From NCBI GenBank assembly GCA_031555735.1, contig JAVBUE010000004.1, positions 1,790-65,789 of the forward strand: a stretch of DNA of 64,000 bases, in the 5' to 3' direction. Made by a program: the position numbers and the translations under genes. Source of the DNA: Tannerellaceae bacterium. GTDB taxonomy: Bacteria; Bacteroidota; Bacteroidia; Bacteroidales; Tannerellaceae. How positions within the stretch are numbered: the stretch's first letter is position 1; each line of letters starts with the position of its first letter. The notes beneath the pieces were generated by a model, which was not told the origin of the DNA, searched no databases, and saw only the letters and a program-made list of their open reading frames with translations. Positions 2,427 through 62,412 of the stretch are shown here, in pieces.

Positions 2427-2744
2427 ATGGAAATATCATTTGAAAAGGAATACTTGCGAGAGCTATATGAGACTGGGAAAACAACGGACAAGAAACACCG
2501 TTTTCAGCCCAAAGTGACATCAAAGTACCGGAAAACTATTGACATACTCGAATCGGTAGCCCGAATCGAAGATCTGTACAGGTTTAACTCATTACATTTT
2601 GAAGCACTACAAGGCGACAAAAAAGGCATTTTATCGGTACGAGTAAATGACAAATATCGGATTGAGTTTACAGCAAAGCAAGTCATTTCAGAGATTGTTA
2701 TTACCATTTGCAACATTATAGATCTGTCAAATCACTATAAATAA
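2427..2744 (+). CDS. higB: HigB-like RelE/ParE-superfamily toxin (plasmid maintenance system killer type)
   Basis: 105 aa. MEISFEKEYLRELYETGKT...KYRKTIDILESV...LHFEALQGDKKGILSVRVNDKYRIEF resembles HigB/killer-protein family members. The toxin-first order and 7-nt gap to an XRE antitoxin are typical of HigBA. Confidence 0.8.
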   Translation: MEISFEKEYLRELYETGKTTDKKHRFQPKVTSKYRKTIDILESVARIEDLYRFNSLHFEALQGDKKGILSVRVNDKYRIEFTAKQVISEIVITICNIIDLSNHYK

Positions 2745-2751
2745 AGGCATT

Positions 2752-3063
2752 ATGGGAGCAATAAAATACGGGTTCACCCCCACACACCCCGGTGAAGTAC
2801 TCAAGGATGAGTTGGAATACCGCAAGTTGTCGCAAAGCCAGTTGGCTAAGCAAATGGGAATGTCGTATAAGGTGCTGAATGACATCCTGAATGAGCGCCG
2901 ACCGTTGACCACTACTACCGCCATGCTTTTTGAAGCCGCCACCGGGATTCCGGCAGAGGCTTTGATGCGGTTGCAGTTGAAATACAATATGCAGGTGGCA
3001 AGCCAGGATAAAACGTTAGCCGCTCGTCTCGCCGAAATCCGCAGGATGACGGCTATGCTTTGA
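2752..3063 (+). CDS. higA: HigA-type antitoxin (XRE helix-turn-helix)
   Basis: 103 aa. HPGEVLKDELEYRKLSQSQLAKQMGMSYKVLNDILNERRPLTTTTAMLFEAATGIPAEALMRLQ is the HigA/VapI HTH signature. Confidence 0.85.
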   Translation: MGAIKYGFTPTHPGEVLKDELEYRKLSQSQLAKQMGMSYKVLNDILNERRPLTTTTAMLFEAATGIPAEALMRLQLKYNMQVASQDKTLAARLAEIRRMTAML

Positions 3064-3291
3064 TGCGGGTTAATGAATTGCGATTTAGTGTATTTCGCAG
3101 GGGTATCCATATCCTCTATATCGAATAAAATGCGGAAAAAGTCTTTTTTGGTCAGCCCCAAATTACGTAAGGCATTCAGTATGATAAATTCCGGAACCGG
3201 ATTTTCATGTGTTTGTACGATACCGGCATCAGAAAGATATTTTGCTATTTAATTAGTGCGGCATTTGTGAACATATCTGTTGACAATTCAG

Positions 3292-3299
3292 TACTTTTG
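3292..3299 (+). promoter_or_regulatory. -7 box TActTTTG ending 4 nt before the ATG at 3304 (implies a leaderless or near-leaderless mRNA)
   Basis: Exact TAnnTTTG match. No well-spaced -33 TTTG; the nearest is at 3264-3267, spacing 24. Confidence 0.35.
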
Positions 3300-3303
3300 C
3301 AGG

Positions 3304-3858
3304 ATGAATAGTGTTGGGCAATATATCGATTCACTCATCAAAGATGGCGGGCGCAAGCAATCTGACGTTGCGAGAGGTATTGGCGTACAGCGCCAGTTGC
3401 TCAGTTATGTCATTGCCGGACGACGCGAATTGTCCATGTCGTTGGCTCTGAAATTGGAATCGTTTTTCAACTTACCCGAAGGAATACTTCTCAAAATGCA
3501 GGCTGAAAACAGCATTCGTTCCTATAAACAACAACTTAAAAATGAATTGGCAAAGCAGTTGCTCAAAGCCAACGCATTCTGGTCTTACGCGAATGTATCA
3601 GCAGCGGAAATTCCCGCAGAGGAGATGATTGAAAAAACGTTTATATATCTTGATCTTAAGGATATCGCTAAACTATTTGAGCTTTATCCAAGGGACTATA
3701 TCCGAAAAATCTGGCGGAAGAAAATGGCTATTCAAGGTGATTATCTTTTCAACCTCAATGTGATGATCGCCCTTTACTATTTCGATATCAAGCAACCCGA
3801 AAGATACCTCAAACGTGTTGAACGTGAACATCTCAAACACCTATTGGAAAATGCGTAA
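3304..3858 (+). CDS. XRE-family HTH protein with an uncharacterised ~115-aa C-terminal domain; putative antitoxin partner of the downstream AbiEii-like gene
   Basis: The track start at 3280 is TTG; the first ATG is 3304 (MNSVGQYIDS...). The HTH is QSDVARGIGVQRQLLSYVIAGRRELSMSLALKLESFF. Its stop overlaps the next ATG (ATGCGTAA, 3851-3858). Confidence 0.7.
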   Translation: MNSVGQYIDSLIKDGGRKQSDVARGIGVQRQLLSYVIAGRRELSMSLALKLESFFNLPEGILLKMQAENSIRSYKQQLKNELAKQLLKANAFWSYANVSAAEIPAEEMIEKTFIYLDLKDIAKLFELYPRDYIRKIWRKKMAIQGDYLFNLNVMIALYYFDIKQPERYLKRVEREHLKHLLENA

Positions 3859-4507
3859 AGGTTTAACAGAAAGAATAGACATCATCATTGAGAAAGTGGC
3901 AACCATGGAAAGCATAAAGCCCTATATCTTAAGAGGCGGAATTGCGCTTGCCATGCAGATCGGACATCGCAAAAGTGAGGATTTGGATTTTATGATGTGG
4001 CGCAAGTCAAAAACAGAAAAGCCAGAGGTTGAATGGACTGTCATCGAGAAAGAGCTTAAAGAGAAAATCGGTGTGGTGGAGCATTTCAATATGCTTGGCT
4101 TCGACCAGGTGGAGTTTGTCGTGAAGGGGGTTAAATTCTCCTTCTACGTAAGCAATAATTATTGTCCTGTATCAGAGCCTGTTGCGTATATCGGGAATAT
4201 CCGTCTGGCGGATATTTACTCTATTCTGGCTATGAAGATGGAGGTGATGCTTCGTAGAATGAAAATGAGAGACTACTACGATATTTATGCGATTCTGAAA
4301 GAAGGATATGATATTTCAAAAGGAATTGATTCTGCGTTAAAGTACTCCCGTCACAAATTAAGCACCAAAAACGTCGTGATGATGCTATTGTCAGACAGAT
4401 TTATGTCGGATGAAAATTTTAAACAACTCGATCCAAAATACGAGGTATCGATAGAGGAGATGCGTACATACATTCTTCAAGAACTGAAAAACGCATCATT
4501 GGCATGA
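3851..4507 (+). CDS. AbiEii/AbiGii-family (DUF1814) nucleotidyltransferase toxin-like protein
   Basis: LRGGIALAMQIGHRKSEDLDF (the GG-x-AL...HR-x-S-x-DLDF NTase motif) and RDYYDIYAIL are hallmarks of the family. I chose the ATG at 3851 because it overlaps the upstream stop; the track start is 3815. Confidence 0.75.
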   Translation: MRKGLTERIDIIIEKVATMESIKPYILRGGIALAMQIGHRKSEDLDFMMWRKSKTEKPEVEWTVIEKELKEKIGVVEHFNMLGFDQVEFVVKGVKFSFYVSNNYCPVSEPVAYIGNIRLADIYSILAMKMEVMLRRMKMRDYYDIYAILKEGYDISKGIDSALKYSRHKLSTKNVVMMLLSDRFMSDENFKQLDPKYEVSIEEMRTYILQELKNASLA

Positions 4508-4537
4508 TTTTACAAATTAATCTTTCCACGCCCACCA

Positions 4538-5374
4538 TCACCCCTCTGCCCTGTGCAGTGTAAGCTGCGGGAAGGGGAAGGAGATGCCTTCGGCGTTGAA
4601 GGTGTTGTAGATGAGGTTGTTGGTTTCGAAATAGACGTCCCAGTAATCGGCGGCGTTCACCCAGACGCGGATCACGACGTTTACGCTACTGGCCGCCAGG
4701 GCATGCAGTTGGAAATAAGGGGCGGGATCGGGCAGGATACGGGCATCTTTAGACAGGATACCCTCCACGATCCGGCGGACATGGGCGATATCGGTACCAT
4801 AATCCACTCCGACAATCCACTCGATGCGGCGTGTTTTCACATTATAATTGGTTACGGCGTTACTGCTCATCGAGCCGTTCGGTGCAAAAACAAGCTTGCC
4901 GTCAACGGTGGTGAGCACCGTATGGAAAATCTGAATCTCTTTCACCGTTCCAGAGGCCGTGGTTGATTCGATATAATCGCCTACCCGGTACGGTTTGAAC
5001 AGGAGGACGATCAGTCCCCCGGCAAAGTTCGACAGGTTGCCGCTCAGCGCCATACCGACAGCCAGACCCGCCGAAGCCAGCAAGGCGGCAAACGAAGTGG
5101 TTTCCACACCCAACGCCCCCACGATGGCAATGATCAGCAATACCGTCAGCGTAATATTCACCAGGCTGGCGGTGAAGGTACGGACAGAAGGCTCTACCTG
5201 CCGCTTATACATGATCTTCTTCACCAGCTTGTTCAACATGCTGATCAGGAATCGTCCGACGACAAAGATCAGTAATGCTTTGAGGACACTGAATCCTAAC
5301 GAGGTTCCCATCTCGACCAGCTTTTCCAGCATGGCCTGTACCTTGGTGAGTTGTTCTGCCTGAAGTTCTACCAT
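4538..5374 (-). CDS. small-conductance mechanosensitive channel (MscS family)
   Basis: 278 aa. N-terminal TM helices, pore-helix-like ALLASAGLAVGMALSGNLSNFAGGLIVLLFKPYRVGDYIE, then the beta domain GTVKEIQIFHTVLTTVDGKLVFAPN. Confidence 0.9.
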   Translation of the reverse strand: MVELQAEQLTKVQAMLEKLVEMGTSLGFSVLKALLIFVVGRFLISMLNKLVKKIMYKRQVEPSVRTFTASLVNITLTVLLIIAIVGALGVETTSFAALLASAGLAVGMALSGNLSNFAGGLIVLLFKPYRVGDYIESTTASGTVKEIQIFHTVLTTVDGKLVFAPNGSMSSNAVTNYNVKTRRIEWIVGVDYGTDIAHVRRIVEGILSKDARILPDPAPYFQLHALAASSVNVVIRVWVNAADYWDVYFETNNLIYNTFNAEGISFPFPQLTLHRAEG

Positions 5375-5479: not shown

Positions 5480-6325
5480 ATGCGTATTAAACATAATAGA
5501 CTCAAAATACAGGCGATATTTGCGCTGCTGCTGGCTTGTAGCCTGAATATGGCGGCACAGACGTACGCCGAATGGGTGGAAAAGAGCTATGACTTCCTGG
5601 AAAAGAACGACTTGGCTATGGCTGAGTCCTGTCTTACAACTGCTATGAGACAGGAGCCGGGCAACCCTGCCAACTATGCGTTGCTGTGTAACCTCGGTAC
5701 GATCCAGCGCCGGCAGGGAAAATTCCGGGAGGCGATAGACGCATACACGATCGCACTCAGCCGGCAGCCTTCCGACGAAACATTGCTCGAAAACCGCGCC
5801 TCCCTCTATGCCCAACTTGGTGAAGTAGAGAAAGCGCTGGCCGATTATACCATCCTCCTTATCAACCAACCCGAAAACCAGGACGCGCTCTATTGCCGGG
5901 GACTGCTTCACCTGCAACAGCGCGACTACATCAACGCCGAAACCGATTTTGAGAAGATACTCGAGATCAACAATAATTCCTTCCAGGGACAACTGGGTCA
6001 TGCCATCCTGGAGAAGATGCGAGGCAATTACGCCGACAGCGAACAACTGTACAACTACCTCATCGGCCGCATGCCCAAAGAGTGGTCGCTATACGAAGGA
6101 CGTGCCGAACTGTACTTCCTGATGGGGAAGAACGCACGCGCCATGGCCGACATCAACAAACTGTTTGTCGAATCCACCCCGACGGCCGGCCTTTATGTGC
6201 TCCGCGGCAAAGTAAAACTGGCCCAGTACGAGAAGAAACCGGCGATTGAAGATTTCCAGATCGCGTTAGATATGGGGTACGACCCCGCCATCATCGGTGA
6301 ACTGATGAAATTGGCTAACAATTAA
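5480..6325 (+). CDS. secreted tetratricopeptide-repeat protein
   Basis: The track start at 5456 is TTG. The ATG at 5480 gives MRIKHNRLKIQAIFALLLACSLNMAAQ (signal peptide), followed by repeated A-x-x-Y/L-x-x-A-L/I TPR units. Confidence 0.8.
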   Translation: MRIKHNRLKIQAIFALLLACSLNMAAQTYAEWVEKSYDFLEKNDLAMAESCLTTAMRQEPGNPANYALLCNLGTIQRRQGKFREAIDAYTIALSRQPSDETLLENRASLYAQLGEVEKALADYTILLINQPENQDALYCRGLLHLQQRDYINAETDFEKILEINNNSFQGQLGHAILEKMRGNYADSEQLYNYLIGRMPKEWSLYEGRAELYFLMGKNARAMADINKLFVESTPTAGLYVLRGKVKLAQYEKKPAIEDFQIALDMGYDPAIIGELMKLANN

Positions 6326-21270: not shown

Positions 21271-21389
21271 GCCGTAGGAAGACGGATCGTCCGCATACGG
21301 ATCGTCTTTTTCAGCCCCTTCTTTTGTCAACAACCGTATCTTCTATGGTCCTCAATAAGAGGAAGTAATGTCACGATGCGGAGGGTTTA

Positions 21390-21477
21390 TTCTTCCCACC
21401 GTGGTGGAAACATCTTCCCACCCTTGTGGGAACCTCTTTCCACCACGGTGGGAAGAGGTTTCCACAAGGGTGGGAAG
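21390..21477. repeat. four exactly 22-bp phased quasi-palindromic units TTCCCACC-N2-4-GGTGG(G)AA arranged U1 U2 rc(U1) rc(U2)
   Basis: ttcttcccaccgtggtggaaac | atcttcccacccttgtgggaac | ctctttccaccacggtgggaag | aggtttccacaagggtgggaag. It lies between the convergent leuB and galM genes. Confidence 0.9.
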
Positions 21478-21577
21478 AATAGTTCTTCCGGATGCCTGAC
21501 TTAGATCTACCTGATGCTGACGATAATTCATCCGGTTGTTGACAATAGAGCCGTAGAGTCCCTTCTCGATCGTTCGC

Positions 21578-33072: not shown

Positions 33073-33480
33073 ATGAAACGTTTAGTAATCGCAGTAGCCG
33101 CAATGGCAATGAGTGTATCCCTGAGTTTTGCACAACGTCCGCAAATGGCAAAAGAACCGTTCGCAATCAACCTCGACAAGCTGAGCCAGTGCTTGCAACT
33201 GGAAGCGTACCAACAGGGGAAAGTAGCCGCGATCAACGCCGCATTTGCCCAGTCACAACAGGAAAACCGGTTCGCTCGCATCCCCCGGCATGCAAAAGAC
33301 AAACAGGTACGTCAACTGTATGCCACTCATCTCCAATCCATGAGAGAGGTACTGACAAACGACCAGCTCCGCACGTACACCACCATCCTGAACGCGACGT
33401 ACAACAACCAGCAGCTTCAGAACCAAGAGCTCCGTACCAACCGGTATCTGGCGGAAAGAAGAACGATCGACAGGGAATAG
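33073..33480 (+). CDS. small periplasmic helical protein, possibly Spy/CpxP-like (one LTxxQ motif)
   Basis: 135 aa. Signal MKRLVIAVAAMAMSVSLSFAQ, Gln/Ala-rich helices, VLTNDQLRTY. The family call is weak. Confidence 0.45.
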   Translation: MKRLVIAVAAMAMSVSLSFAQRPQMAKEPFAINLDKLSQCLQLEAYQQGKVAAINAAFAQSQQENRFARIPRHAKDKQVRQLYATHLQSMREVLTNDQLRTYTTILNATYNNQQLQNQELRTNRYLAERRTIDRE

Positions 33481-33561
33481 ATCATTACAGATCATCAAAG
33501 AAAACGGCAAGGTGCATGTGTGTATCAAAAGTAATCCGGCACACAGATGACACAGATTAAA

Positions 33562-33625
33562 ACAGATGACCACAGATTCTTTTAGGTTGATTATTAAATC
33601 GTCTAAAGGATCTGTGGTCATCTGT
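33562..33625. repeat. long hairpin (16 bp perfect + 5 more incl. one G-U) preceded by CACAGAT direct repeats
   Basis: ACAGATGACCACAGAT (33562-33577) is perfectly complementary to ATCTGTGGTCATCTGT (33610-33625). CACAGAT/ACAGAT occurs 4 times in 33540-33577. It lies 80 nt downstream of the 33073-33480 gene; the U-tract is poor (TTGTATCCC). Confidence 0.85.
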
Positions 33626-33704
33626 TTGTATCCCAAAAAAAGCGCTTTGTGAGTAGATAAACGTCTTTCCGTGAAGAAAATACCGGATATGAACACTTTT
33701 ATCC

Positions 33705-33726: not shown

Positions 33727-34953
33727 ATGCGTATGTCAGACATCAATACTTGTATCCTGTGGATTATGATGACCTTCATGGCGATAGGCGCCATCGACCG
33801 TATATTGAACCAGTTCGGAGGATCAGCGGCTATCCTAAGCAAAATAAGACTACAACCGATCGGGAAAGCGATCGAAGGGGCAGGCATACAATTGGAGGAA
33901 GGCTTTATGGCCATGGGCGCCCTTGCCCTGGCAATGGTTGGCGTGATGGCGCTGGCGCCGGTACTGGCGCAACTGTTGGGAGGGATCGTTACCCCAATAT
34001 ACACCGCATTAGGCGCCAGTCCCGCCATGTTTGCCACCACCCTGCTCGCCATTGATATGGGAGGATACACCCTCGCGGGCGAACTGGCCGGAGGCGATAT
34101 CGCGGCATGGATGTACGCCGGCGTACTCTTAGGCTCGATGATGGGAGCCACGCTGGTATTCACCATCCCCGTCGGGCTGGGCATTATCCGGAAGGAAGAC
34201 AGACGTTTCCTCGCGATGGGTATCCTGGCAGGTATCGTCACCATCCCCGTGGGATGTATCGCAGGCGGACTGGCAGGCATGGCTTCCGATATCGTGATCA
34301 ACGGCCAGCCGGTCACATTCACCCTTTCCATGCTGGTGGTCAACATGATTCCCGTCATGCTCGTCGCCCTCCTGGTCGGCCTCGGATTGAAATACATCCC
34401 GGAACAAATGATTGCCGGTTTTCACGTATTCGCCAGGATACTGGTGGTTGTGATCACCATCGGTCTGGCCTGCGCCGTCTTACAGGATCAGACAGGCTTC
34501 GTTGTCATCCCGGGCATGGCGCCGATCTTTTCAGACACCCACGCGATCAATGGCGACTACCGCGCGATCGAAGTGATCGGCAAGATCGCATGTATCCTCC
34601 TGGGCGCATACCCGATGATGTTCCTGATTACCCGTTGGCTGCGCAAACCCCTGTTAAAGATTGGTGGAATGCTGCGGATGAACGATGCCGCGGCAGCAGG
34701 CATGGTCGCCTCCCTGGCGAACAACATCCCCATGTTCGGCCTGCTACACCGGATGGACGACCGGGGAAAAGTACTCAACGTCGCCTTCGCCGTGTCGGCT
34801 GCCTTTACGTTTGGCGACCACCTGGGCTTTGTGGCCGCGGTAGCCTCCCCCATGATCTTTCCCCTAATTGTGGGCAAACTGACGGGCGGCATAACGGCTA
34901 TCTTCGTCGCCATGCTGATCGCCCCGAAACCATCGGAAGAAAAGAAATCCTAA
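33727..34953 (+). CDS. eutH: ethanolamine transporter EutH
   Basis: 408 aa. ILWIMMTFMAIGAIDRILNQFGG...EEGFMAMGALALAMVGVMALAPVLA parallels E. coli EutH almost block for block. Confidence 0.92.
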   Translation: MRMSDINTCILWIMMTFMAIGAIDRILNQFGGSAAILSKIRLQPIGKAIEGAGIQLEEGFMAMGALALAMVGVMALAPVLAQLLGGIVTPIYTALGASPAMFATTLLAIDMGGYTLAGELAGGDIAAWMYAGVLLGSMMGATLVFTIPVGLGIIRKEDRRFLAMGILAGIVTIPVGCIAGGLAGMASDIVINGQPVTFTLSMLVVNMIPVMLVALLVGLGLKYIPEQMIAGFHVFARILVVVITIGLACAVLQDQTGFVVIPGMAPIFSDTHAINGDYRAIEVIGKIACILLGAYPMMFLITRWLRKPLLKIGGMLRMNDAAAAGMVASLANNIPMFGLLHRMDDRGKVLNVAFAVSAAFTFGDHLGFVAAVASPMIFPLIVGKLTGGITAIFVAMLIAPKPSEEKKS

Positions 34954-34969
34954 CCCATCCATACACCAG

Positions 34970-36358
34970 ATGAACTACCACACCACCATCGGGCATACCG
35001 CCTATACCTTTGGTTCTCTCCGGGAACTGATGGCGAAAGCCACTCCCGAACGTTCCGGCGACCAGTTGGCAGGCATCGCCGCACGGAGCATGGAAGAACG
35101 GGTAGCGGCACAAAGAACATTGGCCGACCTACCCCTTCCCCTCTTTCTGGAAGAGCTGCTGATCCCGTATGAGACAGACGAAGTCACCCGCCTGATCATC
35201 GACACCCACGACGACGGCGCTTTTGCCCCCGTCTCCCACCTCACCGTAGGCGGTTTCCGCAACTGGCTGCTGAGTGAACAGGCCACTCCCGAAAAACTGC
35301 GCGCCCTTGCACCGGGCATCACACCGGAAATGGCCGCCGCCGTATCCAAGCTCATGAACAACCAGGATCTGATCCTGGCAGCCAAAAAATGCCAGATAAC
35401 CACCCGCTTCCGCAACACCATCGGACTACCCGGTTGCCTATCCACACGGTTGCAACCCAATCACCCCACCGACGACCTGAAAGGCATAGCCGCCTCACTG
35501 ATCGACGGGCTTCTGTATGGAAACGGCGACGCGGTGATCGGCATCAACCCCGCAGGCGACAGTATGCCGGCTTTGGAACAGATGAGCTACCTGCTCGACG
35601 AAGTGATCAGCCGCTATCAGATACCCACCCAGTCGTGCGTGCTTACCCACGTCACCAACACCATCCAACTGATCGAAAAAAAAGTGCCGGTGGACCTCGT
35701 ATTCCAATCGATCGCCGGCACCGAAGCCGCCAACCGGGGCTTTGGCGTCAGCCTGTCCGTGCTGGACGAAGCCTGGCAAGCCGCCTTGAGCATGCGCCGT
35801 GGAACGATCGGCGACAATGTCATGTATTTTGAGACAGGACAGGGAAGCTGCCTCTCCGCCGAGGCACATCACGGAGTGGATCAGCAGACCTGCGAAGCCC
35901 GCGCCTATGCCGTAGCCCGCCGGTATCGCCCGTTGTTACTCAATACGGTGGTCGGTTTTATCGGGCCGGAATACCTGTACAATGGAAAACAGATCATCCG
36001 TGCCGGGCTCGAAGATCATTTCTGCGGGAAACTGATGGGCGTACCCATCGGCTGCGACGTATGCTATACCAACCATGCCGAAGCCGACCAGGACGATATG
36101 GACACGTTGCTCACCCTGTTGGCGGTGGCCGGTGTCACCTACATCATCGGTGTACCCGGCGCCGATGATATCATGCTCAACTACCAGAGCACCTCTTTCC
36201 ACGACGCCTTGTATATCCGGGAAGTACTGGGACTGAAACCCGCTCCCGAATTTGCCGCCTGGCTCCAACAAAGGCAACTTACAGATGCGAACGGACGGTT
36301 ACTACCCGCCTCCACATCCCAGTTAACAGAACTACCTTCATTCTTACAACACTTATGA
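34970..36358 (+). CDS. eutB: ethanolamine ammonia-lyase, large subunit
   Basis: 462 aa. YTFGSLRELMAKATPERSGDQLAGIAARSMEERVAAQ aligns with the E. coli EutB N-terminus. Confidence 0.95.
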   Translation: MNYHTTIGHTAYTFGSLRELMAKATPERSGDQLAGIAARSMEERVAAQRTLADLPLPLFLEELLIPYETDEVTRLIIDTHDDGAFAPVSHLTVGGFRNWLLSEQATPEKLRALAPGITPEMAAAVSKLMNNQDLILAAKKCQITTRFRNTIGLPGCLSTRLQPNHPTDDLKGIAASLIDGLLYGNGDAVIGINPAGDSMPALEQMSYLLDEVISRYQIPTQSCVLTHVTNTIQLIEKKVPVDLVFQSIAGTEAANRGFGVSLSVLDEAWQAALSMRRGTIGDNVMYFETGQGSCLSAEAHHGVDQQTCEARAYAVARRYRPLLLNTVVGFIGPEYLYNGKQIIRAGLEDHFCGKLMGVPIGCDVCYTNHAEADQDDMDTLLTLLAVAGVTYIIGVPGADDIMLNYQSTSFHDALYIREVLGLKPAPEFAAWLQQRQLTDANGRLLPASTSQLTELPSFLQHL

Positions 36359-37137
36359 ATCAGGATGGATTAATCCCCAATCCCTGGGGAACACTCAGGC
36401 AATATACCGCAGCCCGTATCGCGTTGGGGCGCGCCGGTTCCGCCATACCCACAGACGCCTGCCTGGCTTTCCGGTTAGCCCACGCCCAGGCGAAGGATGC
36501 CGTCGTCCAATCGCTGGACAGGGAAAAACTCACGGAAACGTTCCAATCCTCCGGCATACACACCTTATGGGTGGAGAGCAGGGCGCGGGATAAACAGGAA
36601 TACCTCACCCGCCCCGATCTGGGACGGATGCTCAGCGCCTCATCAGCAGAACAGCTCCGCGCCTCCGCCCTGCTACCCGCCGATATCCTGATTACCGTAG
36701 GCGACGGCCTTTCATCCGTTGCCATCCAAAGGCATGCCGCCCCGTTCATCCAACAGCTCCTGCCCTACCTGCATACACTGGGAAAGACCACCACACCGGT
36801 GGTGATTGCCCGGCATGCCCGCGTAGCCCTGGGCGACGACATCAACCGATGGGTCGGGGCACAAATCATCCTTATGTTGATCGGGGAACGACCAGGCCTT
36901 TCTTCTCCCGACAGCATGGGAGCATACCTCACCTGGCATACAGGAAAAGATAGTAGCCTGGACGCGGAAAGAAATTGCATCTCGAACATCCGCCCCGAAG
37001 GATTGCCCTACGATAAGGCCGCCTTTAAACTGGCCTGGCTGATCGAACAGGCCTGCATGCGGCAGGGCACCGGTATCGAGTTGAAAGACCGGAGCGACGA
37101 CCCCGCCTGTCACCACCTCCTGCGTCCGGCAACCTGA
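36355..37137 (+). CDS. eutC: ethanolamine ammonia-lyase, small subunit
   Basis: 260 aa. 4-nt overlap with eutB; TAARIALGRAGSAIPT, LIGERPGLSSPDSMGAYLT. Confidence 0.93.
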   Translation: MNQDGLIPNPWGTLRQYTAARIALGRAGSAIPTDACLAFRLAHAQAKDAVVQSLDREKLTETFQSSGIHTLWVESRARDKQEYLTRPDLGRMLSASSAEQLRASALLPADILITVGDGLSSVAIQRHAAPFIQQLLPYLHTLGKTTTPVVIARHARVALGDDINRWVGAQIILMLIGERPGLSSPDSMGAYLTWHTGKDSSLDAERNCISNIRPEGLPYDKAAFKLAWLIEQACMRQGTGIELKDRSDDPACHHLLRPAT

Positions 37138-38941: not shown

Positions 38942-41900
38942 TTACTTCTTAAGTTTAGCTAATCTGTTTTCAATCATGGCTGCGATATCATCGTCTCCTT
39001 TATAGTTGTTCTGCAAACTGTTCAGATACACACGCGCCTGGACGTCGTCACCTTTCCGGATGTAGATATCCGCCCAGAGGATAAAACCACGCGCCAGCCA
39101 ATACTGGTGAGGCGTACCGTTCTTCGCATACTCATCGAGCACCTTCAGCGCGTTCGCGTCGTCGTTGTTATCGTAGTACAACTGCGCCAGCAGGTATTTG
39201 GCTTCAGCCCCATGTACCGTACGGGTATCTTTCGACAGCTCTTTCAGGTCGTCCATCGCCTGGTTTTTCTCTCCCAGGGCGATATACGATTTAGCCCGTA
39301 CATACCGTGCTTCAGCAATCAGTTCGGGCGACAACTTGGGTTCTTTCAGCAGTTCGCTGGCTGCCAGCAACGCTTCTTTCGGTTGGTTGACGAAACCGGC
39401 GCAACGCATGACGCCCACCCTGGCCGCTTCCTTATTCTCCGGATTCTCCGCCACCACCTGCAGGCGTTTGAACGATTGCATGGCCGCCGCATATTCTTTT
39501 TGCAGGTATTCGATCTCGGCGGTACGGGCAACGGCGTCTTCGAGGAACTTCGTGTCGCCGCTATCCGTCACCTTCCGGTAGTAGCCCAACGCTTCCCCAT
39601 ATTCTTTTTTATTGAAGGCGATGCTTCCCAGGTAGTAGTTGGCGTTCGCGCTGAAAGCCCCTGCGGGGAACGACTGGAGGTAGTTCACCATACTGCGGCG
39701 CGCCCCCTCGTTATCTCCCCGTAAGAACAGTTTCTCCGCCGCGATGTAGGTCAGCGAATCCTGTTCGCTCACTTCCATCCGCATGGATCCGCCCAGTGAA
39801 TTGGCATACGCCGCATAGGCATTGACATCGTTCAGTTCGATATACACCGACTTCAGATCCTGCAATGCCACCCGCGCTTCTTCGCTGCCCGGGTAATCGC
39901 TGATCACCTTCTTGTAGGCTGTGGCCGCTTTCGCCGGCTGGTTATCGTTAAAATACACCAGCCCCAGTTGTACGCCGGCCTTCCGCGCCAACGCTGTTTG
40001 CGGGAAACGTTTCACCAGCGTCTCGAAGGCGTCGGCAGCCGCTTTGTTGTCCGACAACATCACATAAGCGCGTCCTTTTTCAAACAAGGCGTCGTCCACA
40101 TACTGCGACTCGGGGAAGTCCCGTACCAGGCGGTCCATCGCCTGAATCTTACCCGGGTAATCTTTCTGCAGGCCCAGCACGAAGCCTCGTTGGTAAAGCG
40201 AATAATCGCCGGCCGACGGCAGCACCTGCGCGGCGCGGGCATAACTTTCTTCCGCCTGTGCAAACTGGCGGCCGTGGAAAAGGCAGTCGCCGATGCGGTT
40301 GTAGGCATCCGCCAGTGCAGGAGCCGTGCGGTTCTTTTCCTGGTCGGTGTACTGGCGGAACCGGTTCAACGCCTCGTCGTAATGCTGTTGCTTGAAATAG
40401 CTGTATCCCAGGTTGTAATGCGCCAGGGCATACATATCGGAAGTACGTTGGCGGGTATTATTGAGGTAGGCGCGGAAATCGGCGATCGCCGGGTCGTATT
40501 TCCCCTGGCGGTAATACGATTCGCCCCGCCAGTAATACGCCTCATTGCGCGCCTCGGCATTGTAGGAGCCCATATTGATGGAACGGGTGAAGAGGTCCAC
40601 CGCCTCATCCAGTTTCATATTCGTAAAAGCCTGTGTGCCGAGTTGGAACAGGATATCCTGTTTGGCTTCCAGTATTTTGTTGCCCGGCTGTTTGATCTTG
40701 TCGATCGACGTGAGCGCATCCCGGTAATTTTTAGTGGTAAGATACACTTCCACCAGGTAATCGTTCACCTTATCGGCATAGCGGGAGTTGGGGAAATCGT
40801 TCAGGAAATCCTGGAAGATGTTGACCGACTGTCCGAAGCCGGTAAACGCCGTTTCATGGAGCAGCAGGGCGTAGTTATACAACGCCGTTTCCCGCACCTG
40901 CGGGTCGAATGAAGCAGTGGCGGCCACTTCGAAAGCCATGCGGGCATTGTTCTTATCCTTCAGCCGGAGGTAACATTGGCCGAGGTAGAGATAGGCGTTC
41001 TGAGCCAGGGCGTCGTTGGCCGACACCACCCGCCCGAAGGCATTGACGGCGCTGCTGTAGTTCCCTTTATTGTAATAACAGATCCCCAGCAGGTAGAGGT
41101 CGCCGCGCATCGGATCGTTGGTCAGGGAAGCATATTTGCTCAGGCGGTCGAGCGCCTTCTCCTGGTTGCCCTGATTGAAATACGAGTTTCCGAGCAGGCG
41201 ATACACTTCCGTATTATGCTCGCTGTCCGGGAAAAGGGTGAGCAGTTCTTCCCCCTCCTTCACCACCTGTGCATATTGATTCTGAATGAAATAGATCTGG
41301 GTGATATAGTAGAGCGATTGTTCCCGGTAAGCGGTAAAGTTCTTCAGACGGGCGAACTCGGTCAGCGCGCTGTCGTACTTTCCGGTCGCGTAATCGATAT
41401 ACGCCACATAGTAGGCGGCAGCTTCCCGGTACTGCGATCCGATCTGGCGGATACGCATGAAGTATCCCCGCGCCTTGTCGAGCGTACCTTGTTGGAGCAG
41501 GGCATACGCCTGGCGGAACGAATAGGTTTCCTGCTGTTCAGGGCTCAGCAGGTCGATATCCGACTGCCCGAACCAGAACAGCGCCTTTTCATACTCTTCG
41601 TTGCCGAAGTGCACGCTGCCGATAAAAAATTGGATCTCGTTGGCATGGCGGGAATCGGGATAAGTATCCAGATACTCCTTCAGCACGAGGTCGGCTCCCG
41701 GACGTCCCTGTTCGAAAGCGGCGCAGGCAAGCATATAATCGGCCTCCTGGATCAGGTCGGCATTCGCCGCCTGCTTTTTATACGCTTCCAGCTTGTCGAT
41801 CGCTCCCGCATAATTCTTTAATTCGAACAACTCCCTGCCTTCCGTAAACAACCGGTCGGGCGCTATGAACTGATACGACCGTTGCCCGCTTGCCACGTGG

Positions 41901-41944
41901 CTTACCAGCGCAACACACAGTGGAATAAGAATCTTCTTCATCAT
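38942..41944 (-). CDS. 1000-aa secreted tetratricopeptide-repeat protein
   Basis: Signal MMKKILIPLCVALVSHVASGQ, then about 20 TPR-like units (recurrent A..Y..A......Y..A...F..L...P.S). Confidence 0.8.
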   Translation of the reverse strand: MMKKILIPLCVALVSHVASGQRSYQFIAPDRLFTEGRELFELKNYAGAIDKLEAYKKQAANADLIQEADYMLACAAFEQGRPGADLVLKEYLDTYPDSRHANEIQFFIGSVHFGNEEYEKALFWFGQSDIDLLSPEQQETYSFRQAYALLQQGTLDKARGYFMRIRQIGSQYREAAAYYVAYIDYATGKYDSALTEFARLKNFTAYREQSLYYITQIYFIQNQYAQVVKEGEELLTLFPDSEHNTEVYRLLGNSYFNQGNQEKALDRLSKYASLTNDPMRGDLYLLGICYYNKGNYSSAVNAFGRVVSANDALAQNAYLYLGQCYLRLKDKNNARMAFEVAATASFDPQVRETALYNYALLLHETAFTGFGQSVNIFQDFLNDFPNSRYADKVNDYLVEVYLTTKNYRDALTSIDKIKQPGNKILEAKQDILFQLGTQAFTNMKLDEAVDLFTRSINMGSYNAEARNEAYYWRGESYYRQGKYDPAIADFRAYLNNTRQRTSDMYALAHYNLGYSYFKQQHYDEALNRFRQYTDQEKNRTAPALADAYNRIGDCLFHGRQFAQAEESYARAAQVLPSAGDYSLYQRGFVLGLQKDYPGKIQAMDRLVRDFPESQYVDDALFEKGRAYVMLSDNKAAADAFETLVKRFPQTALARKAGVQLGLVYFNDNQPAKAATAYKKVISDYPGSEEARVALQDLKSVYIELNDVNAYAAYANSLGGSMRMEVSEQDSLTYIAAEKLFLRGDNEGARRSMVNYLQSFPAGAFSANANYYLGSIAFNKKEYGEALGYYRKVTDSGDTKFLEDAVARTAEIEYLQKEYAAAMQSFKRLQVVAENPENKEAARVGVMRCAGFVNQPKEALLAASELLKEPKLSPELIAEARYVRAKSYIALGEKNQAMDDLKELSKDTRTVHGAEAKYLLAQLYYDNNDDANALKVLDEYAKNGTPHQYWLARGFILWADIYIRKGDDVQARVYLNSLQNNYKGDDDIAAMIENRLAKLKK

Positions 41945-41992
41945 TCATCAAATTTAACCAAGCACGAAAGCGTACTTGTTGGTTCTAAGCAG

Positions 41993-42000
41993 CAAATATA
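41993..42000 (-). promoter_or_regulatory. -7 box TAtaTTTG (minus) for the TPR/OMP operon
   Basis: + strand CAAATATA, 49 nt upstream of the ATG at 41944. Confidence 0.4.
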
Positions 42001-42159
42001 GAGATTATGCGCAAGGAAGGCCGCAGTAATTTAACAAAAAAGACTTAAATACCGGCAGAAGGTACGGGATGGATCAACGAGCGGGTGCATCCGCATTCTT
42101 CTCGTCGGCGGATATACAGCGTGACAGATGCCGTATTACACGGCATTTGGGGGAAACTG

Positions 42160-42268
42160 CTTCCACCTTCCACTAAGGGGTGTTATCGCGCAGAGAAACA
42201 ACAAGATAGACAGTGGAAGGAGACGTGTTTTCCCTTCCACTTTTCGTCCACTCTGCTTCCACTGTGTG
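42160..42268 (+). repeat. left arm; contains TTCCAC/GTGGAA hexamers, three of them at 11-bp spacing
   Basis: CTTCCACCTTCCAC at the tip; TTCCAC 42235-42240, GTCCAC 42246-42251, TTCCAC 42257-42262. Confidence 0.9.
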
Positions 42269-42295
42269 GTAAATGCTCCGACAATTACGTATGCT

Positions 42296-42315
42296 GTCCC
42301 ATTTCGAAATGGGAC
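42296..42315. repeat. 20-bp perfect palindrome GTCCCATTTCGAAATGGGAC in the core of the element
   Basis: Read directly. It is followed by a second inverted repeat, CATTTCAATCT (42321-42331) / AGATTGAAATG (42360-42370). Confidence 0.9.
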
Positions 42316-42374
42316 ACAGGCATTTCAATCTGCGTGTAGATGTTGTGCTATCTGCATGTAGATTGAAATGTTGA

Positions 42375-42462
42375 GACAATCATAGGTAAATGGTCTGACA
42401 ACCATAGGTAGATGTTTGAACTGCCATAGGTAGATGTTTGAACAATCATAGGTGGATGTTTT
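42375..42462 (+). repeat. four exactly 22-bp tandem units AAC(A)ANCATAGGTAGATGTTTG in the core
   Basis: gacaatcataggtaaatggtct | gacaaccataggtagatgtttg | aactgccataggtagatgtttg | aacaatcataggtggatgtttt. It shares CCAT(T)AGGTAGAT with the unit at 2172-2193. Confidence 0.9.
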
Positions 42463-42477
42463 GAGCTTTACAAGACA

Positions 42478-42589
42478 CACACGCAGTGGAAGCAGAGTGG
42501 ATGGAAAGTGGAAGGAAAAAACACGTCTCCTTCCACTGTCTATCTTGTTGTTTCTCTGCGCGATAACACCCCTTAGTGGAAGGTGGAAG
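42478..42589 (-). repeat. right arm (reverse complement of the left arm)
   Basis: See the whole-element entry; read directly. Confidence 0.9.
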
Positions 42590-42642
42590 GGAAAAAGGGA
42601 AATCCCCTGAGAGGAGGGCTGTTTCTCGTTATTTCAGGTGTT

Positions 42643-43539
42643 TCAGATCCGCCGGGTGATATAGTCGATGATATGCAGGCAGAGACGGGTGGTACGTTCG
42701 TCGGTATCCAGTTCGGGATTGAGTTCGACAAGATCCATCGATTTCACCAGGTTGGTGGCGATGATCTGATCGACAAAGGTATTGAATTCATCCGGGGTCA
42801 GTCCGTCCGGTACCGTTGTGCCGGTGCCGGGTGCATACGACGGGTCGATGCTGTCCACGTCGATACTGAAATGGATATTCCGTATCCTGCGTTCTTTCAG
42901 TTGCCGTTTGATATCTTCGGCCACAAAACCGATGCCCCGGCTGCGGATCAGTTCCATGGGATAGATGCTGAGCCGTTCGTTGCGGATCAGTTCCTGCTCG
43001 CCATCATCCAGGCTCCGCGTACCGACGAGAAACACATTCTCCGGGTGCACCTTATTGCCGGGGGCGTAGATATTGACCAGTTCTTCGCTCCCTTTTCCCA
43101 TCAGGGCGCTGAGGGGCATGCCGTGGATATTGCCGCTGGGAGAAGTCTCGTTGGTGTTCACATCACCATGCGCATCCAGCCAGATGATCCCGAAATCGTC
43201 GAAACATTTCCCCACCCCCGAAGCACTGCCCAATCCCAGCGAATGGTCGCCGCCGATCACCAGCGGAAAGGCGCCACCCCGCAGGGTGTCATAGACCAGC
43301 TCGGCCAGGTTGTTATTCACCTCCACGATGGCGTCGAGGTATTTCATACTCTTTCCCCGGGCGAACTTATCCTGCTCAACCACGGAAGGGACATAGAGGT
43401 TGCCGAGGTCGAACGCCCGATGGCCGTTCTGCCGGATCAGTTTCATCAGGCCGCGTTCACGCAGGTGGTTAGGCGCCTGCTCCACCCCTTCACGGTCGCA
43501 TCCCAGGTTGAGGGGGACGCCAATAACATTTACTTTCAT
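42643..43539 (-). CDS. rocF: arginase
   Basis: 298 aa. Ureohydrolase Mn-site motifs GGDHSL, WLDAHGDVNT, SPSGNIHGMPL, SIDVDSIDP. Confidence 0.9.
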   Translation of the reverse strand: MKVNVIGVPLNLGCDREGVEQAPNHLRERGLMKLIRQNGHRAFDLGNLYVPSVVEQDKFARGKSMKYLDAIVEVNNNLAELVYDTLRGGAFPLVIGGDHSLGLGSASGVGKCFDDFGIIWLDAHGDVNTNETSPSGNIHGMPLSALMGKGSEELVNIYAPGNKVHPENVFLVGTRSLDDGEQELIRNERLSIYPMELIRSRGIGFVAEDIKRQLKERRIRNIHFSIDVDSIDPSYAPGTGTTVPDGLTPDEFNTFVDQIIATNLVKSMDLVELNPELDTDERTTRLCLHIIDYITRRI

Positions 43540-62146: not shown

Positions 62147-62264
62147 ATCTGTCACGCTGCCACGCAACAGGCTCTATTTTATTGTTCATGAATAAGTTAG
62201 ATATGTGACAGATACCCGTGGCAGATCCGTTTTTTCGCCTTTTTGCTGTCACATCTGCCACGCG
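62147..62264. repeat. three copies of a TGTCAC-N-CTGCCACG module in alternating orientation, forming nested hairpins
   Basis: atctgtcacgctgccacgc (62147-62165), inverted tgtgacagatacccgtggcagat (62204-62226), tgtcacatctgccacgcg (62247-62264). CGTGGCAGAT (62217-62226) is perfectly complementary to ATCTGCCACG (62253-62262). Confidence 0.85.
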
Positions 62265-62412
62265 ATGACTAAAAGTTTTGTCCTGATGGAACTAAAGTTT
62301 CATCCTGATGGGACAAAAAGTTTCATTGGGTAGAACAAACAGTTCCAATAGGTGGGAAAAACAGTTCCAATAGGTGAACCTTTTTGTTCCATTAGGTGGA
62401 AACTCGGAGAGT
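62248..62412 (+). repeat. composite intergenic repeat, copy 2 (same orientation as 2068-2226): GTCACATCTGCCACGCG plus six ~22-bp units
   Basis: aaaagttttgtcctgatggaact / aaagtttcatcctgatgggac / aaaaagtttcattgggtagaac / aaacagttccaataggtgggaa / aaacagttccaataggtgaacc / tttttgttccattaggtggaaac. 62294-62369 is identical to 2103-2178. Confidence 0.9.

Follow-up and report, generated by a model that had tools for sequence, protein, structure and literature searches.

A non-coding element of 430 bp (42160-42589) lies 3' of the arginase gene in the 64-kb stretch of Tannerellaceae DNA analyzed here (the window), and its sequence can be folded as a giant hairpin. The element is tentatively identified as an orphan, lineage-specific compound palindromic repeat of the MITE or REP-BIME kind, built from motifs of this genome and located where relatives carry the rocF terminator; its effects are likely to be passive. 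It is unusually large and perfect, yet it resembles known kinds of intergenic repeats and gives no pointer to a new mechanism. A function as a programmed promoter switch is not supported.

The arms of the element are about 110 nt long (42160-42268 and 42480-42589; 95.5% over 110 nt by self-BLAST). The left outer arm (42160-42231) and the right outer arm (42518-42589) form a perfect 72-nt inverted repeat, 100% complementary according to the repeat finder, as reported in the first-pass annotation of this DNA. The left and right inner arms (42232-42268 and 42480-42517), which had been described as about 37 diverged nucleotides, are indeed imperfect partners, with 90% complementarity over 41 nt (42228-42268 and 42480-42520). 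A 36-mer of the arm occurs at two places only in the window, corresponding to both arms, where shuffled sequences lead one to expect 0. The arms carry repeated 8-mers, among them five copies of CTTCCACT per arm, three of which are at 11-bp spacing; the left outer arm opens with CTTCCAC-CTTCCACT and contains one inverted AGTGGAAG at 42212. The earlier report of three TTCCAC/GTGGAA hexamers at 11-bp spacing holds for the spacing in both arms (42235, 42246 and 42257 on the left; 42486, 42497 and 42508 on the right), but the middle copy is a one-mismatch variant: TTCCAC/GTCCAC/TTCCAC on the left and GTGGAA/GTGGAT/GTGGAA on the right.

The core (42269-42479, 211 bp) has a G+C content of 40% compared with 52% for the window, and encodes no ORF with homologues. 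It contains a perfect palindrome (42295-42316; TGTCCCATTTC followed by GAAATGGGACA, 11 + 11) that the repeat finder extends to 22 bp, instead of the 20 bp first assigned to it. The adjacent structure, initially seen as an 11-bp inverted repeat, is a longer hairpin (42321-42370) with 21-nt arms (42321-42341 and 42350-42370; 86%) and an 8-nt loop. All three of its mismatches are G.T wobbles on the plus strand, and it holds two ATCTGCRTGTAGAT units 22 bp apart. The core also holds a minisatellite (42368-42477) of four 22-bp units with the consensus TTGAACAACCATAGGTAGATGT, detected by TRF at 42371-42461 (period 22, 4.1 copies, 80% matches, score 108). Its units start at 42368, 42390, 42412 and 42434, so the exact 22-bp spacing claimed for them is correct (repeat finder); however, they are similar rather than exact copies, with 61-75% identity to the reference copy when 44 nt are compared.

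The gene content of the window is of the housekeeping type, including ilv/leu, hut and eut genes, thyA/folA, an alpha-2-macroglobulin gene and two toxin-antitoxin pairs. One neighbour of the element is rocF (arginase, Pfam PF00491; 42643-43539, minus strand), whose stop codon ends at 42643 as previously noted and behind which lies a gene of the ornithine-aminotransferase type. The other neighbour encodes a 1000-aa TPR/YfiO-like protein (38942-41944, minus strand). The rocF stop codon is separated from the element by a spacer of 53 nt (42590-42642, minus strand) in which pattern scans detect weak 5-bp hairpins. The left flank (42049-42159) is lineage-specific, without homology in the two closest genomes, and contains GTGACAGAT (42121-42129) and a small GCCGT..ACGGC hairpin.

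By its arginase the window belongs to Tannerellaceae, close to Parabacteroides, and the best-matching species-representative genomes are two MAGs (95% and 90% amino acid identity). Nucleotide homology to both runs through the arginase cluster and ends at the rocF stop codon. The contig of the closest MAG terminates 180 bp after rocF, within a 22-bp TTCCA..TGGAA array; a contig end in such a repeat array is typical of multi-copy repeats. TPR orthologues from the same two MAGs (88% and 82% amino acid identity) were obtained by protein search, the TPR-based genome scan having returned only 35% relatives. In neither genome does rocF adjoin the TPR gene, which has other upstream neighbours there. 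Upstream of the TPR gene the three genomes have only the promoter block in common, from approximately 42048 to the start codon. Since homology stops at the rocF stop codon and resumes at approximately 42048, the 594 bp from 42049 to 42642 are lineage-specific sequence at a gene-order break, of which the element occupies 430 bp.

An assembly artefact, either a chimeric join or an inverted duplication made by the assembler, would place a gene-order break exactly at the element, as is found, and similar repeats break assemblies in relatives. Such an origin is nevertheless extremely unlikely: the element is deep inside a contig of approximately 109 kb, with unique sequence on both sides, and the imperfect inner third of its arms and its unique structured core are unlike assembler-made hairpins.

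Three other repeat structures were identified in the window. These are two direct arrays of about 125 bp composed of 22-bp TTCCA-N5-TGGAA units (2096-2219 and 62287-62410; 93.5% identical), a 230-bp imperfect palindrome (21320-21549) between the convergent leuB and aldose-epimerase genes, with four 22-bp TTCCCACC..GGTGGGAA units at its centre, and a 68-nt hairpin (33560-33627) that extends upstream into more CACAGAT repeats from 33541. Clusters of TTCCAC/GTGGAA occur only in the arms of the element and in the 21320-21549 palindrome, and none are present in 650 kb of relatives; two loci of the window thus have TTCCAC-type clusters and two more have TTCCA..TGGAA units. The motif AGGTAGATCT is present also in the palindrome at 21.4 kb. 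Further occurrences of GTGACAGAT, which lies 30 nt to the left of the element, are found next to each of the two TTCCA arrays (at 2.07 kb and 62.2 kb) and within the 33.5-kb hairpin. The minisatellite of the core and the arrays at 2096-2219 and 62287-62410 have the motif CCAT(T)AGGTAGAT in common. The relationship previously proposed between the tandem units and the array at 2.1 kb is therefore confirmed for a short motif, CCAT(T)AGGTAGAT..TTT, and for the equal 22-bp period, but not by any long alignment. The element is thus composed of short motifs that serve as repeat material in this genome, with no long alignable stretch. Against its membership in a repeat family, the shared motifs measure 6-14 nt and no copies can be aligned.

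Searches for further copies of the element, in the window, related loci, and genome, metagenome, plasmid, phage and viral collections, returned none. The 64-kb window contains no second copy of the element or its arms (36-mer count, self-BLAST), and blastn of the element detected nothing in 231 related loci (2.1 Mb) or among plasmids and phages. An exact arm 40-mer has no match in species-representative genomes, an arm 23-mer has none in metagenome contigs, and three strings representing the minisatellite unit, the core palindrome and the arm terminus have none in viral contigs. Six-frame peptides of the element have no match at E <= 1 among 5.8 billion proteins. No closer strain or empty site was found among metagenome loci retrieved with rocF, the best of which has 86% amino acid identity, and queries with the arginase and TPR proteins of the window returned no further assembly of this species. 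The pattern TTCCAC-N5-RTCCAC-N4-CTTCCAC has 13 matches in genomes for about 2 expected, but they occur only in unrelated phyla (Planctomycetes, Acidobacteria and others) and were judged irrelevant.

The window likewise shows no mobility genes, and the ends of the element show no insertion marks. The flanks read ...GGGGGAAACTG before the element and GGAAAAAGGG... after it, and no direct repeat abuts 42160 or 42589, in agreement with the earlier failure to see a target-site duplication. Among the ORFs of 150 aa or more in the 64-kb window, none encodes a transposase or recombinase domain, which bears out the first reading on the lack of a recombinase gene, and the window has no Y1 transposase/RAYT gene. 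Several other types of element were considered and rejected: parS, because TGTTNCACGTGNAACA is absent from the window, and a plasmid iteron origin, a retron, a type III antitoxin array, a bridge RNA and an omega-RNA, because the adjacent protein gene that each requires is absent.

Five differences separate the two arms, namely four transitions and one T-run indel, and all of them fall inside the inner 38 of 110 positions (P = 0.004); at the mean rate, the probability that the outer 72 nt contain no difference is 0.035. A true MITE would be a single non-autonomous transposon with 110-nt terminal inverted repeats and subterminal transposase-binding sites (CTTCCACT), mobilised in trans by a parent IS with CTTCCACC... 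termini elsewhere in the genome, and its insertion would be recent, hence the perfect outer arms. The long inverted terminal arms, repeated 8-mers, small size and non-coding nature of the element agree with such an origin, as do its intergenic position at a gene-order break, the inserted palindromic elements of relatives, and the break of the closest genome's contig in a repeat array of a type typical of multi-copy repeats. Bacterial MITEs also have terminal inverted repeats, but arms of 110 nt are far longer than most. A true MITE is unlikely: the element has no target-site duplication, no transposase was found in the window, and neither the window nor any public collection searched yielded a second copy. 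Furthermore, arms that match throughout would be expected after a single recent insertion, and evenly spread differences after long neutral decay, yet the differences are confined to the inner part; this pattern suggests gene conversion or growth by template switching instead. Among the options first proposed for the element, a MITE-like nature is still the best fit by analogy, considering the MITE-like inserts and 21-23-bp minisatellites of relatives and the shared motifs, but neither a duplication nor, in the DNA searched, a second copy or a parent transposase was found to substantiate it, and the broken gene order of relatives leaves no definable empty site.

The whole element has a predicted folding energy of -261.5 kcal/mol on the minus strand (z = -24.7), which is the rocF strand, and -298 kcal/mol on the plus strand. 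The 65 nt after the rocF stop codon fold no better than shuffled sequences (z = +1.1) and thus offer no convincing terminator ahead of the element, whereas the relatives L002 and L027 have a canonical rocF terminator hairpin at the corresponding position. Transcription of rocF thus probably enters the element, and a read-through RNA would form a 110-bp stem. In the rocF-strand RNA this stem is followed by CAGUUUCCCCCAAAUG, and a terminator scan detected nothing for the big stem; as there is no U-tract after it, the hairpin is not a canonical terminator. The read-through stem suggested by the first-pass annotation is therefore physically sound, but the wobble pairs favour the plus strand, and selection for a rocF-strand RNA is unsupported.

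The hairpin could alternatively be an RNA under selection, either as the 3' end of the rocF transcript or as an independent plus-strand RNA, acting as a terminator or insulator, as a stabiliser against 3' exonucleases or as an RNase III processing site. The position of the element in place of the rocF terminator of relatives, the lack of a terminator ahead of it and the very stable folds on both strands are compatible with this function. In addition, the fold of the core is more significant on the plus strand (z = -7.0) than on the minus strand (z = -3.0), and G.U pairing on the plus strand could accommodate six of the seven mismatches in the arms and the 42321-42370 hairpin. The latter bias is weak (one-sided P about 0.06) and, the sample being small, is treated as unexplained and not as evidence for an RNA gene. 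The strand favoured by the wobbles lies antisense to the genes on either side, and no TAnnTTTG promoter precedes it; the stem has no U-tract, there are no orthologues from which covariation could be derived, and no Rfam family matches the element at the gathering threshold. A selected RNA is therefore considered unlikely. Weak Rfam matches to miRNA precursors were dismissed as a mere reflection of the long hairpin.

Inverted repeats around a few hundred base pairs, upstream of an operon of the surface or outer-membrane type, are also seen in Bacteroidales invertons. The repeats of these invertons are roughly 10-40 bp long, enclose a TAnnTTTG promoter and need tyrosine or serine recombinases. 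If the element were of this kind, its core would flip by recombination between the arms, through a distant site-specific recombinase or through RecA acting on 72 bp, and would alter transcription toward rocF or the TPR operon. A perfect inverted homology of 72 bp is more than enough for homologous recombination, and the 22-bp array of the core is oriented, relative to rocF, opposite to the related array that follows rocF in the closest genome. The core orientation seen in the window is uninformative on this point because an assembler with k <72 cannot fix it across a perfect repeat of 72 bp.

The promoter evidence argues against an invertible segment. The element (42160-42589) contains no TAnnTTTG box on either strand, which extends to its arms what had been claimed for the core. 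Between 41900 and 42700 such boxes occur on the minus strand only, at 41993-42000 and 41949-41956; the former, TATATTTG, is the -7 box of the TPR operon promoter, at the location initially proposed. It belongs to the block conserved in relatives that lack the element, and the TPR promoter is thus independent of it. Moreover, the 64 kb contain no recombinase, the arms are several times longer than inverton repeats, and no alleles of opposite orientation were seen among the analogous inverted-repeat structures of relatives, for which comparators are few. Inversion of the core, which the first-pass annotation had listed as one possibility, is hence very unlikely. With short-read assembly, neither the core orientation nor even the rocF-TPR adjacency can be trusted. 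The adjacency itself is possibly a join across a repeat.

Related genomes contain structures comparable with the element. A total of 63 palindromic or inverted-repeat structures measuring 60 nt or more were counted across 2.13 Mb of related loci, and only three of them span at least 400 nt. Nineteen of the 63 are located no more than 400 nt past the stop codon of rocF or leuB, a region that accounts for 3.8% of the sequence (approximately 8-fold enrichment). Among 56 tandem arrays in the first 53 loci, 16 have a period of 21-23 bp (or 44/46 bp). Different arrays directly follow rocF in L015, L019 and L027, and two loci of one species share a family of 44-bp arrays. Hairpins with arms made of short tandem motifs recur, with another motif in each genome (for example, TTAGTGN in L005, GTTGACA in L007 and ACGCAGA in L008), and TGAATTA forms the hairpin arms at three sites of the genome of L146; the arms of the 33.5-kb hairpin in the window are likewise made of short tandem motifs. 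Parabacteroides-like genomes thus appear to contain many genome-specific palindromes and 22-bp minisatellites, concentrated after stop codons and turning over between sister species.

The closest structural parallel is found upstream of rocD in P. hominis (L021), where inverted arms of 264 nt, 82% identical, surround a 22-bp TTCC..GGAA array. As in the element, the arms are long and inverted, the minisatellite between them has a 22-bp unit, and the site is intergenic DNA belonging to the same cluster of genes. The L021 arms are two inverted, self-palindromic MITE-like copies of about 260 bp, and each arm of the element can likewise fold back in part on its own sequence (z = -4.9 for the right arm). 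Of the sister genomes, L006 has the array alone and L037 has neither array nor arms, indicating that the L021 arms are insertions. However, L021 has no sequence similarity to the element, and its arms are separate insertions that are more diverged.

[quoted passage not shown] 2015, PMC4596501). Tandem repeats of 22, 23 and 41 nt have been noted in P. gingivalis (PMC4596501). Both elements are strictly intergenic and non-coding, a few hundred base pairs long, and combine stem-loops with an internal 22/23-nt minisatellite. BrickBuilt differs in having distinct 'leader' and 'tail' flanks, 12-nt IS5-type ends (GAGACCTTTGCA), duplications of 2-5 bp, about 19 copies and the unit AGAYCATARTATCCTCTCRTRTG, whereas the element has homologous 110-nt arms, no such ends or unit, no duplication and one known copy. 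The 23-nt unit AGAYCATARTATCCTCTCRTRTG gave 0 matches at <=3 mismatches, the unit of the element being the 22-nt TTGAACAACCATAGGTAGATGT, and the three two-mismatch matches to GAGACCTTTGCA in the window (4.5 expected) are neither in nor near the element. The element is therefore not a copy of BrickBuilt.

The element may also share features with the REP, BIME and REPIN sequences of proteobacteria, which are associated with RAYT: genome-specific short palindromic motifs in varied clusters after the 3' ends of genes (PMC3733652). Inverted doublets of REP/BIME form long hairpins with proposed roles in termination and mRNA stabilisation (PMC3733652). REP units are hairpins of 20-40 nt headed by GTAG or CGTC; they number tens to hundreds and have a cognate Y1 transposase. 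In the element, by contrast, the shared units are motifs of 6-14 nt and 22-bp tandem units, and the window has no RAYT gene. GTAG does occur in every minisatellite unit (GGTAGAT), but it adjoins no stem.

The element may consist of two inverted copies, of about 110 nt each, of a TTCCAC-rich module around a decayed 22-bp minisatellite and two small hairpins, and may be part of a genome-specific pool of short-motif repeats that accumulates just downstream of genes in Tannerellaceae. It would have arisen by insertion or duplication of repeat modules. More recently, gene conversion could have homogenised the outer 72 nt, or template switching could have added them by extending an older palindrome outward; either event would leave perfect outer arms beside diverged inner arms. 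A rocF read-through transcript would fold into the 110-bp stem and may block, or be cleaved by an RNase III-type enzyme, thereby insulating the TPR operon; the long inverted repeat may also create a recombination-prone site. Some observations stand against the orphan-repeat interpretation. There is one copy only, with nothing similar in any collection searched, and neither a target-site duplication nor, in the 64-kb window, a parent transposase. The missing U-tract is at odds with a canonical terminator, and neither the wobbles (six of seven on the plus strand) nor the folding energies (-298 kcal/mol on the plus strand against -261.5 on the minus strand) favour selection of the hairpin on the rocF strand.

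The element alone matters little: it is non-coding repeat DNA, its neighbours are housekeeping genes, and nothing about it indicates a regulatory switch. Inverton finders based on inverted repeats would flag it, probably as a false positive in view of the missing promoter and recombinase. Of greater interest is the observation that, across the clade, palindromes and 22-bp minisatellites specific to each genome are found behind genes. The element may belong to a hitherto undescribed REP/BIME-like system of Tannerellaceae or Bacteroidales, in which an unknown enzyme would actively generate or mobilise genome-specific tandem motifs of 6-9 nt, which form hairpin arms, and 21-23-bp minisatellites behind genes; the perfect 72-nt arms would then mark a currently active copy, which may also invert. 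Such a system is decidedly unlikely. A single mechanism behind these repeats, if there is one, would correspond in Bacteroidales to REP/BIME biology, with consequences for transcript 3' ends, recombination hot spots and the contiguity of MAGs.

Genes for ethanolamine utilisation (eutH, eutB and eutC; 33727-37137) separate the MeaB gene from the pair formed by the 591-aa and TPR genes, two loci that lie within about 260-770 bp of each other in the two closest MAGs (L057 and L058, the best species-representative relatives by arginase). The position of eutHBC is a second lineage-specific rearrangement near the 430-bp palindromic element (42160-42589). At 37137-37160 gene orientation switches, with mostly plus-strand genes to the left converging on minus-strand genes to the right; overall, the plus strand of the window contains more C than G.

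A hairpin at 33541-33627, lying downstream from a small ORF with a signal peptide (33074-33480), has a left arm made of four tandem CACAGAT(G) motifs. Its motif (GTGRCAGAT) also occurs 30 nt to the left of the 430-bp element and adjoins the 22-bp arrays at 2.1 kb and 62.3 kb. Between the convergent leuB (IPMDH) and aldose-1-epimerase genes lies an imperfect palindrome of 230 bp (21320-21549) that is 72% self-complementary and is centred on four 22-bp TTCCCACC..GGTGGGAA units. The same position after leuB is occupied in other genera by unrelated long palindromes or arrays (loci L074, L075, L132, L137 and L146).

Related genomes contain palindromes of their own. In Parabacteroides hominis NSJ-79 (L021), a 901-bp composite (3756-4656 of that locus) consists of two inverted, self-palindromic copies of about 260 bp, with ends CTCTCTTTTGCCGTCTGCTTCAGCAGACGG, flanking a 22-bp minisatellite. 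The composite is missing from the sister genomes L006 and L037, and the ~260-bp element appears to represent a MITE-like family not yet described. In Parabacteroides sp. OttesenSCG-928-G21 (L146), a 10-kb stretch has three hairpins or inverted repeats (278-370, 4531-4995 and 6096-6188), all of them built from tandem TGAATTA heptamers. They exemplify a dispersed, genome-specific hairpin family whose arms are made of motif repeats.

The arrays at 2.1 kb and 62.3 kb (2063-2219 and 62243-62410) are twin copies in direct orientation, 93.5% identical over 124 nt. Each includes six to seven 22-bp TTCCA-N5-TGGAA units and is preceded by TCACATCTGCCACGCG, and the copies are located 300-420 bp upstream of minus-strand genes, one for a protein with a signal peptide and one for urocanase. 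The 2.1-kb array is directly followed downstream, at 2427-4507, by two toxin-antitoxin-like pairs, one comprising a HigB-like toxin and an HTH antitoxin, the other an HTH protein and an AbiEii nucleotidyltransferase toxin. Similar 22-bp TTCC..GGAA arrays are found 3' of rocF in two of the compared loci (L001 and L015) and 5' of rocD in two others (L006 and L021). Therefore, this type of array is genus-wide.
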